Shown here piece by piece: positions 4,315 through 37,827 of a DNA stretch of 64,000 bases. The position numbers and the translations under genes were made by a program. The DNA is taken from positions 32,001 through 96,000 of the IMG/VR virus record IMGVR_UViG_3300021387_000299; one strand, written 5' to 3'. Each line of letters starts with the position of its first letter. Within the stretch, counting starts at the first letter, position 1. The DNA comes from a virus. Taxonomy: Duplodnaviria; Caudoviricetes. The notes beneath the pieces were generated by a model. The model had not been told where the DNA came from and ran no database searches. It saw nothing but the letters and a program-made list of their open reading frames with translations.

Positions 4315-5126
4315 TGAAATTTGGAAATGTTTCAGTAAATAATTTTGAAGGTGCCTTTAGAGGAATGCGCAATCCATTAAATAGTTGGAATAAGTCTGAT
4401 AGTGAATTTGGAATATATGATTATGACTATGAAACAGACGTTTTGGTAGGCTTAAGATGGGCACGTAATAGATATCCAGATTTAGATGAAGATTCTATAG
4501 AATTCACAGAAAAGCATGAAGCAGCCACGAATTGGTTGAAAGAAAATCAAACGTTTAAAAATTCTTATGAGCCATTCTTTATAGGTGCTTATATTGGTCC
4601 AAATGATATGGATCTTGCTCAACGTTTATGCAAAGCTGGACCAGAACATCGCAAATTTTTACGTCAAATTCAGGTGTGTGTAGATATTATTGCTCCATTA
4701 TATTGGTGGAAAGAATTTGATACTTATAAGATTGGAACTGTAGCTAATTCTACATCAACAATGCATAAATTAGCCTCAACTTCAATTACTATTGATTGTT
4801 TTGAAATAAGTGATTATGAAGATCGTCTCCAGCTTATTGATCCAGCAATTATTGATGTAAGAGTTAATAGTTTCCTAGATAGTCTAGAACAATTACGCCA
4901 GTTGTATAATCAGACAAAAGACAAACGCTATTGGAAAGAATTAGTTCGTTGGTTGCCAAGTGGATGGTTACAGACTCGAACAGTTACATTGAATTATGAA
5001 AATTTGCGCAGCATCTGCGCGCAGAGGGAAAATCATAAATTGACTGAATGGCATCAATTTGTTGATTGGGTGCATACGCTTCCTTATGCAAACGAACTTA
5101 TTTTCGACCAAGAGGTTGCCTTTTAA
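4314..5126 (+). CDS. ThyX-like (flavin-dependent thymidylate synthase fold) phage protein
   Basis: HRKFLRQI, APLYWWKEFDTYKIGT..NSTSTMHK, NYENLR....QR..HKL.EW motifs. Confidence 0.6.
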   Translation: MKFGNVSVNNFEGAFRGMRNPLNSWNKSDSEFGIYDYDYETDVLVGLRWARNRYPDLDEDSIEFTEKHEAATNWLKENQTFKNSYEPFFIGAYIGPNDMDLAQRLCKAGPEHRKFLRQIQVCVDIIAPLYWWKEFDTYKIGTVANSTSTMHKLASTSITIDCFEISDYEDRLQLIDPAIIDVRVNSFLDSLEQLRQLYNQTKDKRYWKELVRWLPSGWLQTRTVTLNYENLRSICAQRENHKLTEWHQFVDWVHTLPYANELIFDQEVAF

Positions 5127-8096: not shown

Positions 8097-9615
8097 ATAT
8101 ATAGATACTACTGCAATTGTTCAAGTTATTGGAAGCGTATTTATAAAACCACAATTACTTGATGAAACTGATAAATATGTAATTACAGAAGAAGATTTTG
8201 TTTCAGATTTTCATAGAGTTGTATTTGGTGCAATTTATAAAGTATATGAACTTGGCGCAGAATCTGTTACAATAGAGAATGTATGCGATTTTTTATCAAC
8301 AAAACCAAAAAGTCAGGCTGTTTTTACAGTAAATAAAGGAGAAGAATGGCTAAAAAACATTTCAGAAAAAGCTCTTCCTTCTGCATTTGATTTTTACTAT
8401 AACAGAATGAAAAAGATGACTCTTTTGAGAGCATATGATTCATATGGTATTGATGTAAATTTCATTTATAATCCAGATGAAATTGATACAAAGAAACTTC
8501 AGCTTCAAGAAGAACAACTTGATAATATGAGTTTATCTCAAATTGCCGATAAAGTTGATGCAATTGTAGATGCGATTCGTCTTGATTGTGTAAGTGACAC
8601 TTTTGGAGATACTCATCAGGCTGGAGAGGGTATTGATGCTCTGATTGACCGATTAATGATGTATCCAGAAGTTGGTTCACCATTATATGGCAAGTTTATC
8701 AATAGAGTTACTCGCGGCGCAAGACTTAAAAAATTCTATTTGCGTTCTGCGCCTACTGGAGTTGGTAAATCTCGTTCAATGATTGCCGATTGTTGCTATA
8801 TTGGCGCCGATATGATTTATGATGATATGCTGGGTTGGATTGGAAATGGTATTGCAGAGCCTTGTCTATATATCTCAACCGAGCAGGAATTAGAAGAAAT
8901 TCAAACCATGATGCTTGCTTTTTTATCTTCAGTAAATGAGGAACATATCATCAATAATCAATATGAAGGTGATGAAGTTGAGCGTGTGCGCAAGGCCGCA
9001 GAAATTTTAAAAAGATCTCCAATATATGTAGAAGAGTTACCAGACTTTTCACTTCAAGATGTTGAAGATAAAATTAAAAAAGGAATTCGAGAACATGGAG
9101 TAAAATATGTATTCCATGATTATATTCATACTTCAATGAAGATTTTGGAAGAAGTTACTCGTCGTTCAGGCGGTGTAAGATTAAGAGAAGATAACGTATT
9201 ATTCATGTTATCTATCAGATTAAAAGATATTTGTAATAAGTATGGAATTTTCATTGAATCCGCAACTCAGTTAAACGCAGATTATCAAGAATCAGAAACT
9301 CCAGATCAAAATTTGCTTCGTGGTGCAAAAGCCATTGCGGATAAAATTGACTATGGTAGTATTCTATTACCAGTAAATCAAAAAGATTTGGATTCACTTG
9401 ATACTCTTTTAAAACAGAATATCTATGAAAAACCTAACTTGAAATTATCTGTTTATAAAAACCGTAGAGGTCAATATAAAGGTATTTATCTTTGGTGCAA
9501 GGCAGATTTGGGAACTTGTAGAGTCAATCCTATGTTTGCAACGGATTGGCGCTATCAGTTAATTGAAATGGATGATTATCAAATTAAAGTAGAGCCAGGG
9601 GCATTTGATGATTAA
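8086..9615 (+). CDS. dnaB: DnaB-like replicative helicase
   Basis: SAPTGVGKS Walker A, FHDYI, ATQLN, LRGAKAIADKID, KNRRG motifs. Confidence 0.9.
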   Translation: MVSKYIDTTAIVQVIGSVFIKPQLLDETDKYVITEEDFVSDFHRVVFGAIYKVYELGAESVTIENVCDFLSTKPKSQAVFTVNKGEEWLKNISEKALPSAFDFYYNRMKKMTLLRAYDSYGIDVNFIYNPDEIDTKKLQLQEEQLDNMSLSQIADKVDAIVDAIRLDCVSDTFGDTHQAGEGIDALIDRLMMYPEVGSPLYGKFINRVTRGARLKKFYLRSAPTGVGKSRSMIADCCYIGADMIYDDMLGWIGNGIAEPCLYISTEQELEEIQTMMLAFLSSVNEEHIINNQYEGDEVERVRKAAEILKRSPIYVEELPDFSLQDVEDKIKKGIREHGVKYVFHDYIHTSMKILEEVTRRSGGVRLREDNVLFMLSIRLKDICNKYGIFIESATQLNADYQESETPDQNLLRGAKAIADKIDYGSILLPVNQKDLDSLDTLLKQNIYEKPNLKLSVYKNRRGQYKGIYLWCKADLGTCRVNPMFATDWRYQLIEMDDYQIKVEPGAFDD

Positions 9616-24254: not shown

Positions 24255-24800
24255 ATGAGTAAATTTGAAGTAGTAAGTAAATATATTGGAGAAAACGGTA
24301 ATACAGCTATTCATCTTCCAGTTCGTGCAACTGAACATAGTGCAGGATATGATTTTGCAGCTGCGCAGGATGTTATCATTCCATCAATGAGAGAAATTAT
24401 GAATACATTTGAAGACTATGTTGCAAAAAAGATTCCTTATTCATATGAAGATATTAAGGCTGTAACAAAAGCAACAGGATTTAGACCTACTTTAATTCCT
24501 ACTGGAATTAAGTGTCAACTTGATGTTGGTAAGTATCTTGAAATTTCTGTTAGAAGTTCTACTCCTCTTAATGGTTGGGTCATTCTTGCTAATGGAGTAG
24601 GCATTATTGATGGAGATTATTACAACAATCCAGATAATGAAGGCGAAATTTTCTTCCAGGTTATTAACCTCTCTCCAGTAGATATTGTGATTAACGCTGG
24701 AGATAAAATTGGTCAAGGTATTATTAAATCATATGACAAAGTTGAAGGAGACGATGTCACAACCAAGAGAATTGGAGGCTTAGGCTCTACTAATGCCTAA
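24255..24800 (+). CDS. dut: trimeric dUTPase
   Basis: SAGYD, PTGI, RSS, GIIDGDYY..NEGEI, IGQGI, RIGGLGST motifs. Confidence 0.95.
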   Translation: MSKFEVVSKYIGENGNTAIHLPVRATEHSAGYDFAAAQDVIIPSMREIMNTFEDYVAKKIPYSYEDIKAVTKATGFRPTLIPTGIKCQLDVGKYLEISVRSSTPLNGWVILANGVGIIDGDYYNNPDNEGEIFFQVINLSPVDIVINAGDKIGQGIIKSYDKVEGDDVTTKRIGGLGSTNA

Positions 24801-25311
24801 TATCTTGGCTCTTGACCAAGCTTCACGCGTCTCTGGATGATCGGTCTTTATAGATGGAGAATTAAAAGACTGAGGACATTTAACAACAAATCAAGAGGAC
24901 GTAGGTGAACGTCTTCTTGATATTCATAATTTTATCATTAAAAAAGTCCAAGAGTGAAATATAGATACAATTGCTTTTGAAGATATACAATTGCAGTCGT
25001 CAGTTGGGAACAACGTAAAAACATTCAAAGTATTAGCAAATGTTTACGGTGTAGTTCAAATGACTGCTGTACAGCTTAATAAAAATTACAAGGTGATACC
25101 ATCTTCAACGTGAAAATCTAAATTACAAATTAAAGGACGAACAAGACCTGAGCAAAAACGCAATGCCCAACAATATGTGCTCCAAAAGTATGGAGTTAAA
25201 GCGACGCAGGATGAATGCGATGCCATATGCATCGGTACTTGCGCAAGCCTGGTTCAGGGATCGGATGAGCGAATCGCCGCAAATGAAAATGGATTTGATT
25301 GGTCAGAATAA
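24793..25311 (+). CDS. ruvC: RuvC-like Holliday junction resolvase, 4 in-frame TGA(Trp)
   Basis: MPNILALDQASRVSG(W)SVF...IAFEDI...PSST(W)KSKL...DECDAICIG; TGA at 24838, 24871, 24955, 25111; TAA at 25309; missing from the supplied ORF track. Confidence 0.88.
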
Positions 25312-25368: not shown

Positions 25369-25959
25369 ATGACAATTACCGCAGATGCAGTTTTAACATA
25401 CATCCTTGTTGCTGTTGGTGGCTTTTTAGTAAAGGTAATACTTGATAAAATTAAACAATCAGCAGAAGATAAAACAGATAAGGCTCGTAGATTTGAAGAA
25501 CAGTCATGGAAAACAGAAATTACAAAAATTGTTAGAGAAGAAAACTTATCATTAAAAAAAGAATTAAGTAATAGAATTGAAGAAATTCAAAAAGAAAATA
25601 GAAAAAATTATGATTATTGGCAAAAAATGTATTGGGATGCCGTTGATCGTTTAGAAAAAGTTCAGAAAAAATTTGAAAATCTTGAAAAACAAGATATTAT
25701 TTTTTACAGAAATTTGTTAATTGATACTTGTAAAGAATATATAGCAAAGGGTGAACTCACAGAATATCAATTCGATAGATTAACAGAGTGGTATAAGATT
25801 TATAAAGAACTTGGTGGAAACCATCAAGGTGATTTATATTATAAGAAAGCAGTTGCTTTACCAATTATTCCAGATAAGCATTCTGAAGAAGATCAAAAAA
25901 TGCATAGTATCTTTGACTACGAAGATTTAGTTGAATCAGAAAACAAAAATAAGGGATAA
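25369..25959 (+). CDS. membrane-anchored coiled-coil phage protein (lysis-region family with Y..LGGN motif)
   Basis: N-terminal hydrophobic helix, YKELGGN motif. Confidence 0.6.
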   Translation: MTITADAVLTYILVAVGGFLVKVILDKIKQSAEDKTDKARRFEEQSWKTEITKIVREENLSLKKELSNRIEEIQKENRKNYDYWQKMYWDAVDRLEKVQKKFENLEKQDIIFYRNLLIDTCKEYIAKGELTEYQFDRLTEWYKIYKELGGNHQGDLYYKKAVALPIIPDKHSEEDQKMHSIFDYEDLVESENKNKG

Positions 25960-25990
25960 CCTATAATTTAGGTTATCCCTTATTTTTTTT
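25945..25990. terminator. bidirectional terminator where the two arms converge
   Basis: AAAAATAAGGGATAACCTA-taatt-TAGGTTATCCCTTATTTTT perfect inverted repeat. Confidence 0.85.
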
Positions 25991-26390
25991 ATGCTTGTCT
26001 TGTAAACTTAATTACATTTACCTGCTCTTGGATTAATTGAGAAATATAGAAGTCAAGATCTGTATAAACTTCAGTTAAGACCTTCTGCATTTCCTCAGTT
26101 AATAAAGCTTTAATTGCATCAAATGTCTTATGATAAGCAATATCATGTTCTTCTGGGCCAAATCTACCCTGTTCTTTTAATTCATCAACGTAGGTTTGAT
26201 TTGTAGCAATAACGCAAGTTTCAACAATTCCCATTAACATATCTGAATACTTGTTAAATAATTCATTTTGTGAATTATCTTGCATTTCTTTAACCTTCTT
26301 CCGCATAAAAGCAATACCATAAGTGCAAAGAATACCAATTAAAGGTAATAAACAAGTAAAGAAAATTTCTTGTAATAGCGCAGCTGTCAT
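25989..26390 (-). CDS. LL-H family holin-like protein
   Basis: Start MTAALLQE at 26390 with AAGGAG RBS; one N-terminal TM helix; IATNQTYVDELK..G.F motif. Confidence 0.6.
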   Translation of the reverse strand: MTAALLQEIFFTCLLPLIGILCTYGIAFMRKKVKEMQDNSQNELFNKYSDMLMGIVETCVIATNQTYVDELKEQGRFGPEEHDIAYHKTFDAIKALLTEEMQKVLTEVYTDLDFYISQLIQEQVNVIKFTRQA

Positions 26391-26411
26391 TATCTTTCTC
26401 CTTAATAAAAA

Positions 26412-26506
26412 TGGCGGGGGATGTAGGACTCGAACCCACACCCGCGGCTATGGACACCGCTACCCTGGTTTTGAAGACCAGTGTGCTACCATTACACTAA
26501 TCCCCC
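26412..26506 (-). tRNA. tRNA-Trp-type opal (UGA) suppressor, anticodon UCA, 25-nt variable region
   Basis: GGGGGAT/ATCCCCC acceptor, G73, encoded CCA; D arm GTGT/GCAC; anticodon arm CTGGT-CT[TCA]AA-ACCAG; T arm GTGGG-TTCGAGT-CCTAC; GGTCT.CAAAACC and GGTGTGGGTTCGA.TCCTAC match Firmicutes tRNA-Trp as I recall it. Confidence 0.93.
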
Positions 26507-26533: not shown

Positions 26534-26905
26534 CTATGCTTTAGTAACTGTTAATTTAGTTACTTCTGGCTCTTTTTTAAATAAATTAATATAAAGCAAT
26601 CCATCTTTAACTTCATATGTTACAGACTTAAACATGTCTGCTTTAATATCAAATTTAGAGCTTACTTTATAATCATAGTTTAAAAGATCATTATGAGTGA
26701 CGCCTTCAATCACCAATCTATCACGACCATCCTCATTAACAATATCTACCTTAACATCATCTTCTTTAACACCAACGATATTATGGACAAGAACAACTCT
26801 ATCTTCAAGAGTTTTAATTGAATAAGGCTTCATGTCATGAACAGGACGGCTAAAAGTATACGCTGGTTTATCCCAGTCGAAAAAAGAATCTAAATCAAAC
26901 ATCAT
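26534..26905 (-). CDS. Hsp20/alpha-crystallin small heat-shock protein
   Basis: GVKEDDVKVDI..LVIEG..YEVKDGLLYINL pattern; GGAGG RBS. Confidence 0.75.
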   Translation of the reverse strand: MMFDLDSFFDWDKPAYTFSRPVHDMKPYSIKTLEDRVVLVHNIVGVKEDDVKVDIVNEDGRDRLVIEGVTHNDLLNYDYKVSSKFDIKADMFKSVTYEVKDGLLYINLFKKEPEVTKLTVTKA

Positions 26906-26919
26906 ATTAAAAAATCCTC

Positions 26920-27141
26920 CTAAAAAGTTTCTAAAATAAGACCCTGAGCTAAATCATTATAAACAGTTTTATAATTAAAACGCTCTGTTATCATCCAAGT
27001 AGGTTTTCCATTTTCCAAAAAACTCTCTTGACGTGGATCTTGAACTATAATTTGCAAGGTAAAAGATTCTGGATATATAAATCTAAACAAGAAGTTCTCT
27101 ACCTTTTTTAATTGTTCATAGTTATCTACTCTTAATTCCAT
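26920..27141 (-). CDS. hypothetical protein
   Basis: AAGGAG RBS; first gene after a sigA promoter. Confidence 0.7.
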   Translation of the reverse strand: MELRVDNYEQLKKVENFLFRFIYPESFTLQIIVQDPRQESFLENGKPTWMITERFNYKTVYNDLAQGLILETF

Positions 27142-27164: not shown

Positions 27165-27193
27165 ATTATACAAAAATTTTCTAGTGAAGTCAA
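27165..27193 (-). promoter_or_regulatory. sigA-type promoter for the 27141-Hsp20-tRNA(UCA)-holin-like operon
   Basis: TTGACT-17-TATAAT on the - strand. Confidence 0.8.
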
Positions 27194-27194
27194 T

Positions 27195-27230
27195 AAAAAA
27201 AAAGAGGATTAATTAAAAATTAATCCTCTT
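27195..27230 (-). terminator. intrinsic terminator after the holin
   Basis: AAGAGGATTAAT..ATTAATCCTCTT followed by T-run on the - strand. Confidence 0.75.
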
Positions 27231-27531
27231 CTATGCTGTTATTTTGTTGAAATTGTCTTCAAGAGGTTAACTGACCATATAATTCAAACATATAGTTAGA
27301 GCCTCTTGATAAAATTATTGCAGTAGCAATTATACCAATAATGGGCCATTGTTCAACAAAACCTAACATTACAAAGAAATTAAGACTCATATCATAGCAA
27401 AGTAAGCCACTTAAAATCAAAGCAACAATAATTTGTCATTGAATAGAACCATTTTTATAAATTTGTTGTCCATATGAAATTAAGCCTTCAATAAGAATAG
27501 CTACAGCAATGAATGGAAAAAAACCGCTCAT
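27220..27531 (-). CDS. holin (3 TM, SRGSN family) with 2 TGA(Trp)
   Basis: MSGFFPFIAVAILIEGLISY..GSIQ(W)QIIVAL...IIGIIATAIILSRGSNYMFEL..; TGA at 27436-27438 and 27259-27261; directly downstream of the endolysin. Confidence 0.8.
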
Positions 27532-27567
27532 AATATTTAACCCCTTTATTCTTATTTACATTTATTT

Positions 27568-28293
27568 TCAATTGCCAATAAATCTACCATTTTTATCAAA
27601 CATGACAGGGACAGTATGCTTGCCAATAAATAAGGCACCGTTCTTTCCGAAGAAATACCAGTTCCCATCAAGTTTGCACCAACGAGATGAGGCCATAACC
27701 CCATGATCAAGAACAAATCTCTTAACGCCATCGTCATTAATCCATGCATGTTTCTGCATATAACCTTCAGCGTCAGTATGATATGTCTTGCCATCAACTG
27801 TAACCCATTGATTTCTTACCCAAGAATCACCGAGTTTGCATCTCTGTCCTTTACTATCCTTCACCCATACAGCTTTCTGATCTTGCAATGCGTTAAATCT
27901 GAAGGCTCCAAGAATATCTAACTTCAATTTAACTGTGCAGTATCCGCCATTGCCGCCTTGGTTCTGCCCGAAGATGTATGCATATCCATCCTCTTCGGCG
28001 TATCTTACAAGCATACCGACATGAGAAGAAGGACATGAGCTACCCATTGCCCAGAAGAGCCAATCGCCCGGTTCTAGCTTTTTCTTGTCTGTAATAAATT
28101 TTGCATACGCTGAATATTCAATTCTGTTATACCAGTATCCATCTGCCCAACCAGTTTTTGTAGGTAATACTGGAACTTTAATATACCAACAGAAACGTTT
28201 GAATGCATCAACGCACTGTGCCCCATAGACACCATCATAGTCATCGACTTTCCCATTATATTGGTTAATAAAATCTTGCACTATTTTATTCAT
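27568..28293 (-). CDS. endolysin: CHAP domain plus cell-wall/choline-binding-type repeats
   Basis: DGVYGAQCVD, SHVG, FGQNQG; C-terminal W..DG.WY.F...G repeats; 11 Trp, all TGG. Confidence 0.9.
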   Translation of the reverse strand: MNKIVQDFINQYNGKVDDYDGVYGAQCVDAFKRFCWYIKVPVLPTKTGWADGYWYNRIEYSAYAKFITDKKKLEPGDWLFWAMGSSCPSSHVGMLVRYAEEDGYAYIFGQNQGGNGGYCTVKLKLDILGAFRFNALQDQKAVWVKDSKGQRCKLGDSWVRNQWVTVDGKTYHTDAEGYMQKHAWINDDGVKRFVLDHGVMASSRWCKLDGNWYFFGKNGALFIGKHTVPVMFDKNGRFIGN

Positions 28294-35463: not shown

Positions 35464-37827
35464 TTATTTTTCTATAAATTTATTAGCATAAATTTTTAAA
35501 TCTTTTGCTATTCTAGCCAATCCATAAACGCGTATATATAAATCAATATATCCAGTAGATATATTAGAATTTGGGAAACCCGGTATTTGATTTGTTTGAT
35601 ACACAGTTCAAGAACCTAATGCTCCATATCAATTACCCGAATTAGTATTTGCAATAGACATACGCGTACCAGTAGCTCTTCTTCATAATCCACCCATAGT
35701 GCTATTTGTATATCCAGAAGAAGTGTTATAAGTAACAGTTCCTGGTTTAACATCTTCTCATACAGCATCATTTGGATTTATATTTTGTGTTCAACGATAT
35801 TTTTGTTCTGTTGCGGTAGAGGTTGTTTTTTGTTTAACCATAAATTCATAAGTTGGCATATAAGGTATTTGCTCTACATTATATCATTTATTTTCATTTA
35901 TATAAACACCATGTTCTCAATCTGCGCTTTGCGCAAAATATCCACTTGTAGTGGGATCATTATGATGGAAAATTCTTATTCAAGTACTGCCATCTGGCTC
36001 TTCATAAATATTAGTATCATATTTTATAAATGGGTTCTCAAAAATTTCACCTGTTTTTACTTGTCCGTTTTTATTAATGGAGTTTTCTTGATTTTCTACA
36101 AATTCAAAACCATGAATACCATTTAAATTATCAATATTTGCAGGGGTATTATATAAAGCTAATACATCTTCTGCGGAAAGTGCGGTTGCATAAATTCTAA
36201 AATCTGACATTTCTCCTTTGTATGGGGTATTGTCTCCAGATCGAGTATCTCTACCAATTCTAAATGTAGTAGGAAATGTTAATGTATTATGCGCAGCAGT
36301 CGAAGCTCATTTTTGAGTTCCATTAATATAAACTTTAATATCATTAGAACCATTTTTTACAATACAAATATGTTGCCATACTCCATCAGAAATTGTTGCC
36401 CCAGTACATGTTTCATCTGGAGATCCATTTCATCATAATCTAAGTAAATTTGTAGTAGTTTTTTCTATTGACCATGATATCCCTGGATAGCTTCCAAAGT
36501 AAACAGAACGAACATTATTTTCTCCATTTGGTTTAATTCAAAATGAATATGTAACAGAGCTATTTATTATATTTGAAATATTTAAATGTTCAACTAAAAC
36601 GCCATCATCAATTCCATCAAAGCTAGTAACGACACCATATTTTCCAGAATTTGATGATATCGTAATTGGTAAACTTATTATATTACCATTGTGTTCATAA
36701 CCAGAAGAGTCTTTTATAGTATCTTTAGCATCCCCAAAATACGCCCTAATATTTGAAATAGTGAAAGAAGCACCTTCATTTGAAGTATTTAGTCTTACTC
36801 TTATTCTTGATTGATAAGTTAATGCATATGTAGCTTGTGCGGCAGTAACTTTAAAAGTACCTTTATGATGACCAGAAGGCGTATTTGTTAATGTTGTATA
36901 ATCTATACGATCAGAAGGAGAAACAATGGTTGTATTAAGCTGAGAATATAAATATGAAGTACTTGCGGTTACTCCGGTAACACTGTAATCATATTCTACA
37001 GTAATTGTTGTACCTTCTGTTATAGCATGAGTATATTTAGTATCTATATATCAAAAACCGGTATAAACAGCCGTTGATCCAGAGGCAATTGTAGCTGTTT
37101 TAGAAGCAACTGAAGTGAGAATATTTGGTTGAACTCCTTCATCTAATTTATAATGCAGTATTAATCCCTGACTTATTTCTTTTACTTCTAAAGCAGATAA
37201 ACAATGATCATAAATACGGACATCATTAAGATAGCCATTTAATCTATAATTCCCATGTAGAGCATTACCAGAGGTTCCATTAAAAGATCAAGCAAAAATT
37301 CCAATATAATCTTCTGGAACAGACATTACTCCAATGTTATGAATTCCATCGACCTTTCCATTTACATATAAAGTTGCTATAGATCCATTGTATGTAAATC
37401 CAACATGATATCAAGTATTTGCTGATAATAATGTGCTTCCACAATAAGTATTAAATGTTCTGCTTGAACCTGTACCAGTATTTATAGATAAATATCCTGT
37501 TGTGGTAGATACATGTTTTATTGTAAGTCCCATTCCCGTATTATTTCCATAACGATGTTGAGTAATCATTGCTCCACCTAAATTAGAACCACTTGTTAAA
37601 GAAGTAAATTTTACTCAGCAAAACATTGATTGATTTATACCTAAACCAATAGTTTTTGAAGAAACTAATCCGCCTCCAGTACTTGAATTATTACCATAAC
37701 AACTACCTATTTTTCCATTAGCATTTTCTGTAGTGCTAGTTGTATTTGCCATAGAAAAAGTAATACTTCTATCAGTTCCTATATTTTTAAGATCACCATT
37801 AAGCGGCAACCATATTTTTAATGCCAT
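35464..37827 (-). CDS. LamG/concanavalin A-like domain tail protein (787 aa, TGA=Trp)
   Basis: MALKIWLPLNGD, (W)YHVGFTYNG...LYVNG, GYLNDVRIYDHCLS..EV, MSDFRIYATALS. Confidence 0.8.

Follow-up and report, generated by a model that had tools for sequence, protein, structure and literature searches.

Phages in which UGA has been reassigned from stop to tryptophan encode a tRNA with the anticodon UCA, confine the recoding to structural and lysis genes, carry the tRNA next to the lysis cassette and presumably rely on the tryptophanyl-tRNA synthetase (TrpRS) of the host for charging (Borges et al., bioRxiv 10.1101/2021.08.26.457843; Seki et al., PMC12636597). All 13 of the 13 phage tRNA(UCA) that were tested in E. 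coli extract inserted Trp (Seki et al., PMC12636597). Bacterial TrpRS identifies its tRNA by the anticodon and by G73, with A1-U72 as another mark (PMC9976931). Borges et al. (bioRxiv 10.1101/2021.08.26.457843) proposed reliance on host TrpRS and left the mechanism open, so that an open question from their work is how host synthetases that read the anticodon accept a suppressor whose anticodon has been changed. The phage tRNA(UCA) that we describe here resembles these suppressors in its anticodon, in the set of recoded genes, in its position and in its presumed charging by host TrpRS, and differs by a second arm that is described in neither paper: the word 'variable' refers in Borges et al. 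only to the consistency of replication-gene recoding, and in Seki et al. it is never said of a tRNA arm.

A structural parallel is found among the engineered allo-tRNAs of Mukai 2020 (PMC7590224), in which a copy of an anticodon stem-loop sits at the variable-arm position while the other anticodon decodes a stop codon. In that work, the pseudo-anticodon engineered into the variable arm improved charging through an anticodon-binding domain that matched it. Those molecules are synthetic, have His identity and are served by a HisRS fused to an extra binding domain, whereas the tRNA reported here is natural, has Trp identity and would presumably be charged by an unmodified host enzyme. By its hairpin of 5 bp and 7 nt, with a loop of the form N-U-CCA-A-N, the tRNA resembles the engineered pseudo-anticodon-arm tRNAs in structure, and its arm may likewise raise aminoacylation through the anticodon-binding domain of the synthetase.

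Mycoplasma-type tRNA-Trp(UCA) has a short variable loop. Like the tRNA of this phage, the tRNA-Trp(UCA) of code-4 bacteria (Mycoplasmatales; Eggerthellaceae, PMC13462651) combines Trp identity with a UCA anticodon and coexists with a tRNA-Trp(CCA); a second arm is unmentioned in the Eggerthellaceae paper, yet two such genomes carry it. Hairpins that copy a cognate anticodon loop and are bound by the synthetase are also known from the E. coli thrS operator and from viral tRNA-like structures (PMC9976931). These mimics lie in mRNAs or viral genomes, where they regulate or tag, unlike the hairpin reported here, which would lie inside a working tRNA.

A tRNA gene with two anticodon-like arms

The window, by which we mean the whole 64,000-nt stretch of DNA that was analysed, comprises bases 32001-96000 of a 177,819-bp virus record with 34% G+C and ~95% completeness (CheckV). 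The only tRNA gene that ARAGORN called in the window (26412-26506, minus strand) has the anticodon tca, is 95 nt long and encodes its CCA end. The Rfam tRNA model (RF00005) matched this gene with 62 bits (E 5e-11, cut-off 29 bits) and placed a 22-nt insertion in the variable region, and the minimum free energy (MFE) structure from RNAfold contained both a UCA and a CCA hairpin. An earlier reading made from the letters without database searches (hereafter the sequence-only reading) had described a 95-nt tRNA with a UCA anticodon, a Trp-type body and a CCA-centred 5-bp/7-nt hairpin; the ARAGORN call coincides with it, and all of its coordinates and strings turned out to be right, the strand being minus. 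The label 'SeC' given by ARAGORN follows from the UCA anticodon alone, and we rejected it as a statement of identity.

From the 5' end, a 7-bp acceptor stem and a 4-bp D arm with a 7-nt loop lead to A26. The decoding arm lies directly 3' of A26 (26465-26481, minus strand; CUGGU/CUUCAAA/ACCAG, anticodon UCA at 26474-26472), is aligned by Rfam as the anticodon arm, and has a loop with the canonical C32, U33, A37 and A38. It is joined by the inter-arm linker GGUA (26461-26464), the sole element without a counterpart in a class I tRNA-Trp, to a second, putative pseudo-anticodon arm (26444-26460; GCGGU/GUCCAUA/GCCGC), which appears in the MFE fold, has homologous arms in other tRNAs and displays CCA at 26453-26451. 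Four nucleotides, GGGU (26440-26443), separate the second arm from the T stem; they have the length and type of a normal tRNA-Trp variable loop, the phage's own tRNA-Trp(CCA) having the 4-nt GGAU at this place. The T arm, the 3' acceptor strand, G73 and CCA occupy 26412-26439. Outside the anticodon, the marks of bacterial Trp identity are G73, G2-C71 to G5-C68 and A1-U72; in the acceptor stem of this tRNA, pairs 2-71 to 5-68 are G-C, and pair 1-72 is G-C and not the A-U found in most members of the class defined below.

When either arm is removed together with the GGUA linker, a canonical 74-nt class I tRNA-Trp is left. Two readings of the molecule are thus equivalent: a CCA arm added to a tRNA-Trp(UCA) before its variable loop, or a UCA arm added to a tRNA-Trp(CCA) after position 26. 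In a global alignment, the anticodon arm of the phage's own tRNA-Trp(CCA) falls on the second arm of the suppressor.

UGA is almost certainly read as tryptophan in the late genes

The plus-strand half of the window holds replication genes, and the minus-strand half holds virion and lysis genes. Under translation table 11 this late block (27220-62845, minus strand, delimited by code 4 ORFs and codon counts) is fragmented, whereas table 4 yields genes that reach 2405 aa and contain as many as 17 in-frame TGA. The late block contains 107 in-frame TGA against 60 TGG, compared with 6 TGA against 87 TGG in the early block, and the genes stop with TAA or TAG in every case. Only one early-block ORF, at 24793-25311 on the plus strand, has several in-frame TGA, four in all. 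Recoding may reach this gene, which lies outside the late block, or the ORF may arise artefactually from reading past stop codons.

To read the codon through homologues, a 787-aa structural protein (35464-37827) was aligned, with its 16 TGA codons as X, to 120 database homologues. At the 16 X positions, 654 of 1271 homologue cells (51%) are W, compared with 2.1% W in the background. W is the most frequent residue at 12 of these positions and Y at 3, the latter in keeping with the exchange of W for other aromatic residues, and S makes up 3.5% of the cells. UGA is thus near certain, as far as codon counts and alignments can tell, to mean Trp in the late genes, with the tRNA(UCA) as an opal suppressor on which the block at 27220-62845 is predicted to depend. 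The sequence-only reading had taken the tRNA for an opal suppressor with a Trp-like body; the code 4 ORFs, the codon counts and the W at TGA positions bear this out and show the phage to be TGA-recoded.

The SeC label, G73 and the long variable region invite a different assignment, to a tRNA-Sec or a serine-accepting class II tRNA, with UGA meaning Sec or Ser; tRNA-Sec, Ser, Leu and Tyr are likewise ~95 nt long and have a further hairpin between their anticodon and T arms, and Sec and Ser share G73. The bodies tell against this. tRNA-Sec has an 8-bp acceptor, a 5-bp T stem and a 6-bp D stem with a 4-nt loop, and the window tRNA a 7-bp acceptor, a 5-bp T stem and a 4-bp D stem with a 7-nt loop. 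The Ser, Leu, Tyr and Sec tRNAs of the same loci have 3-5-nt loops, 5' linkers mostly of 0-2 nt and 3' linkers mostly of 1 nt (Tyr mostly 3), so that the window tRNA is set apart from class II (187 Ser, Leu and Tyr controls) by its 7-nt loop and two 4-nt linkers, as well as by a class I D arm and acceptor and by Trp at UGA. The remaining long-arm UCA tRNAs in our viral scan are genuine tRNA-Sec, with other bodies, 8-bp acceptors and 3-5-nt variable loops. With W so far ahead of S at the TGA positions, and 107 UGA codons in one block being unlike selenoprotein usage, a Sec or Ser assignment is very hard to credit.

Genomic context of the suppressor gene

Among the 29 tRNA genes of the phage genome is an ordinary tRNA-Trp(CCA) (genome coordinates 4485-4560), part of a cluster that lies ~54 kb from the suppressor. 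We found no gene of the TrpRS/TyrRS family (PF00579) in the 177.8-kb genome, itself ~95% complete, and the host enzyme would consequently have to charge the tRNA(UCA). That host is likely a member of the Bacillota, because the 1301-aa DNA polymerase resembles, at ~40% identity, the polymerases of Enterococcus and SPbeta-like Bacillus phages.

The suppressor gene lies near the end of the late block, ~1.05 kb downstream of the endolysin gene (27562-28293, minus strand; PHROG endolysin families), which contains one in-frame TGA, and 18 nt upstream of the holin gene (25989-26393, minus strand; PHROG phrog_13712, E 3e-23). The order along the minus strand is a terminator-like hairpin (27200-27232), a candidate sigma-70-like promoter (27165-27193; TTGACT-17-TATAAT, 11/12 consensus), two small ORFs (26920-27141 and 26534-26905), the tRNA, the holin gene and a 19-bp perfect hairpin with A and T runs on both flanks (25945-25987), which is a candidate bidirectional terminator and sits exactly at the convergence of the two gene blocks. 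The two small ORFs (26534-27141 together) have no PHROG match and lie upstream of the tRNA in the same apparent unit. Both the first hairpin and the promoter candidate come from a consensus scan; the site at 27193-27165 offers a weak hint of a promoter that could drive the small ORFs, the tRNA and the holin gene, promoter-like sites in the scan showing no enrichment over shuffles.

Codons were counted in the small ORF at 26534-26905, which has no in-frame TGA, and in the holin gene, which has zero TGG and zero TGA. Since both are free of TGA, the tRNA unit could be translated before the code change takes effect; 'code change modules' with the same no-TGA property have been described (Borges et al., bioRxiv 10.1101/2021.08.26.457843). 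The holin gene begins 18 nt past the CCA end of the tRNA, and 3' processing of the tRNA would create the 5' end of the holin mRNA.

The CCA arm is conserved among phage tRNA(UCA)

To place the second arm in a comparative setting, we scanned IMG/VR with a pattern in which a Trp-type anticodon arm and the T loop were fixed and the variable region was left free, and used the identical pattern with CCA as a control. An arm was counted when it had a 7-nt loop with CCA centred and at least 4 of 5 flanking stem pairs. Of 72 distinct viral UCA tRNAs, 36 have such a CCA arm, whereas none of 118 tRNA-Trp(CCA) has one (Fisher p = 5e-19), nor does any of the 226 other long-arm tRNAs (Ser, Leu, Tyr and others) of the same loci. 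The sequence-only reading had cautioned that a centred CCA has a chance probability of about 1/64; chance is excluded by this comparison across tRNAs, and not from the window sequence alone. Another 19 distinct UCA tRNAs, some of them with Trp-type bodies, are without the arm, and it is therefore not universally needed. Three of the 118 viral tRNA-Trp(CCA) (L225, L228 and L239) have a variable region of ~11-14 nt with no CCA loop, which is a different thing.

The class as analysed below has 40 members, including the window tRNA and 3 loci from a genome scan selected for TCCAAA. Their second loops are GUCCAAA (20), CUCCAAA (14), UUCCAAA (2), UUCCAAC (2) and GUCCAUA (2, the window and L040), while the anticodon loop of the control tRNA-Trp is CUCCAAA in 117 of 118 cases. 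Across 35 distinct arms, U33, C34, C35 and A36 are invariant and A37 and A38 are kept in at least 90%, with all 5 stem pairs altered on both sides. The covariation score of 1.05, compared with 0.27 for shuffles, was reached by 0 of 500 shuffles, and sliding the pairing by a single column makes the score collapse. The 95% of paired positions is a partly circular figure, the set having been picked for a paired CCA arm, which does not apply to the stem diversity or the invariance of U33. Homologues thus keep the CCA while the stem covaries, and the arm is what the sequence-only reading had taken it for, a look-alike of the Trp anticodon arm. The loss of CCA among homologues, which that reading had named as grounds for giving it up, is not what the comparison shows.

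The tRNA bodies that carry the arm are diverse, forming 22 clusters at 90% identity and 14 at 80%, some of them with a Sec-like 6-bp D stem. G73 is shared by all 40 members and A1-U72 by 31 of them. The 3' linker is 4 nt long in 34 of 40 (NGGU in Trp-type bodies), and the 5' linker has 3-6 nt and is purine-rich. This diversity bears on the proposal that the arm is no more than a leftover of a duplicated anticodon arm, evolving neutrally and now functionless; a relic of such a duplication was also among the possibilities named in the sequence-only reading. The alignment of the phage's own tRNA-Trp(CCA) anticodon arm to the second arm is compatible with an origin by duplication; neutrality is excluded by four invariant loop positions over five stem pairs changed on both sides, in 35 arms on 14-22 body lineages, and we leave the relic next to no probability.

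A true two-anticodon decoder, in which the arms swap and both UGA and UGG are read on the ribosome, would accord with the canonical 74-nt tRNA-Trp that remains after removal of either arm and GGUA, and with the junctions, the UCA arm having a normal A26 junction and the CCA arm a normal 4-nt junction to the T stem. However, 22 of 40 members have G at position 32 of the second loop, a base that stands there in 5 of 1220 (0.4%) real anticodon loops, and the window loop has U37 where 98% of real anticodon loops have a purine, so that both bases are indeed as atypical as the earlier reading had remarked; moreover, the phage already has a normal tRNA-Trp(CCA). Dual decoding therefore seems to us quite improbable. 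By its pattern of conservation, the second loop is constrained at positions 33-36, where a synthetase would read it, and not as a decoding loop.

Several observations from the scan stand apart from this comparison. A relative of the phage (L152, with neighbouring proteins 50-76% identical) has a CCA-arm tRNA(UCA) overlapping 8228-8276 with a very different body, including a Sec-like 6-bp D stem and the loop UUCCAAC; by all appearances the arm design was kept here though the tRNA itself was replaced. A kissing pair between the CCA loop and a UGG in the D loop was considered and rejected, as D loops of class members are often without UGG (e.g., AAAGGCA, AAUGCUA). A crude recoding index per tRNA class, based on ORF length with TGA open versus closed, was dropped because it is confounded by G+C. 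A scan with one narrow pattern for a glutamine counterpart on amber suppressors gave no match to that pattern.

The same design in bacterial genomes

In a scan for variable regions with TCCAAA, in which each prokaryotic species was represented by one genome, the two-armed tRNA(UCA) turned up in four bacterial metagenome-assembled genomes (MAGs). An identical two-armed tRNA occurs in two related ~1.1 Mb MAGs of Coriobacteriia/Eggerthellaceae, L328 (4024-4119, assembly JAUNQF01) and L316 (4597-4692), where its neighbours are a glycosyltransferase / UDP-galactopyranose mutase pair and glutamate symporter and formiminotransferase genes. These neighbour genes swap TGA with TGG between the two genomes. 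Both MAGs belong to the Eggerthellaceae lineage that was recently reported to use UGA as Trp, and whose tRNA-Trp(UCA) was noted with the variable region unmentioned (PMC13462651). The two-armed design thus serves as chromosomal UGA decoder and general elongator in code-4 Eggerthellaceae. A pattern search for the arm in 301 Eggerthellaceae genomes returned only the two known genomes; other code-4 Eggerthellaceae may use a different tRNA sequence.

With the arm removed, the tRNA of these two MAGs is 81-85% identical to phage members and 66% identical to the tRNA-Trp(CCA) of the same genome; likewise, the window tRNA shares 86-89% identity with the class and 61% with the tRNA-Trp(CCA) of its own phage. 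This pattern of identities marks the two-armed tRNA as a distinct, mobile lineage and suggests that it was transferred between phages and the code-4 lineage.

Among the other two matches, one lies on a phage-like contig of a Bacilli MAG (L337) and is one of only four CCA-arm members with the GGUA linker of the window tRNA, and one lies on a 3-kb contig in a Treponema MAG (L330). The same scan returned ~22 tRNA-Sec with TCCAAA in the variable region (L317-L342: Caulobacteraceae, Skermanella, Bryobacteraceae and others), which at first sight seemed to contradict the pattern and were rejected. There the UCC is paired in a 6-8-bp stem with a 4-5-nt loop, so that the match is a pattern coincidence in another register, and a trap for motif searches of two-armed tRNAs.

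A proposed handle for the host synthetase

We propose that the UCA arm reads UGA as Trp in the late virion and lysis genes, and that the change of C34 to U that made this possible would strip one TrpRS identity mark from the tRNA. The second 5-bp/7-nt hairpin, which shows U-CCA-A and would be a copy of the tRNA-Trp anticodon loop, could compensate for the lost C34 from its place after the decoding arm and ahead of a 4-nt variable loop that is otherwise normal. In such an arrangement the anticodon-binding domain of host TrpRS would read the pseudo-anticodon and the ribosome the UCA arm, with access for TrpRS given either by a flexible tether or by the two arms exchanging places under the D stem. 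We regard this reading as a whole, that is, a host-charged opal suppressor with the CCA arm as a TrpRS pseudo-anticodon, as fairly probable. The single step in which the CCA arm is bound as a handle by host TrpRS is, in itself, probable to much the same degree.

Help with charging by host TrpRS was among the functions raised in the sequence-only reading. The comparative data favour it, with an arm found on UCA tRNAs only, G73 in every member and no phage TrpRS; the function itself is what we infer from them. Two other roles raised in that reading, a decoy for anticodon nucleases and a processing switch, find no support in these data. Two features count against a handle: the window loop carries U37 and G32, and an arm at the variable position would be off the expected anticodon site of TrpRS, so that the tether or the arm exchange would be needed.

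Conservation shows that the U-CCA-A loop is read, not by what, and a partner other than TrpRS has to be weighed here. The arm could serve in competition with release factor 2, in EF-Tu or ribosome binding, as a decoy for a tRNA-Trp nuclease, or through a Trp-sensing RNA such as a T-box leader; regulation would also go well with the location of the tRNA in the lysis cassette, where the holin gene follows after 18 nt. What speaks against such partners is that the arm is restricted to UCA tRNAs with G73 and mostly A1-U72, and that a decoy or a regulator need not be in cis on the suppressor. The same design is also the housekeeping UGA decoder of a code-4 bacterium, which argues against phage-only roles such as nuclease decoy and lysis timing, phage defence and lysis timing being inapplicable there. 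We consider a partner other than TrpRS unlikely.

The TrpRS handle can also be carried further, into a two-state tRNA. With the canonical position-26 junction retained by the UCA arm and the canonical 4-nt T-stem junction by the CCA arm, either of them could stack under the D stem; TrpRS would then read CCA and the ribosome UCA, and a lineage of such tRNAs spread by phages would have enabled the cellular change of UGA to Trp. We offer this extension tentatively and hold it to be doubtful.

The CCA arm is real and strongly conserved, and undescribed so far as we searched, the full-text literature searched holding no description of a natural CCA arm. What is new here is its use in a chromosomal UGA decoder of code-4 Eggerthellaceae, together with the frequent G32, which argues that the arm itself is not a decoder. 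If the handle is true, a suppressor that carries the original anticodon arm along as a copy would solve the synthetase problem simply and generally, and would set a natural precedent for a design known so far from laboratory constructs only. The tRNA would then be the first known natural one in which synthetase and ribosome read separate anticodons, and could supply parts for genetic code expansion. Its occurrence in code-4 Eggerthellaceae ties phage suppressors to the evolution of the cellular genetic code.

A phage locus without the arm may represent an alternative solution. At L127 (4402-5524), a tRNA(UCA) with a short variable loop, A73 and no arm lies 70 nt upstream of a phage TrpRS gene, whose product is 47% identical to a Bacilli TrpRS; it is the only UCA tRNA among the examined loci that adjoins a phage TrpRS gene. 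Here the phage would bring its own synthetase and the CCA arm is absent, a single anecdote that points the same way as the proposed handle.
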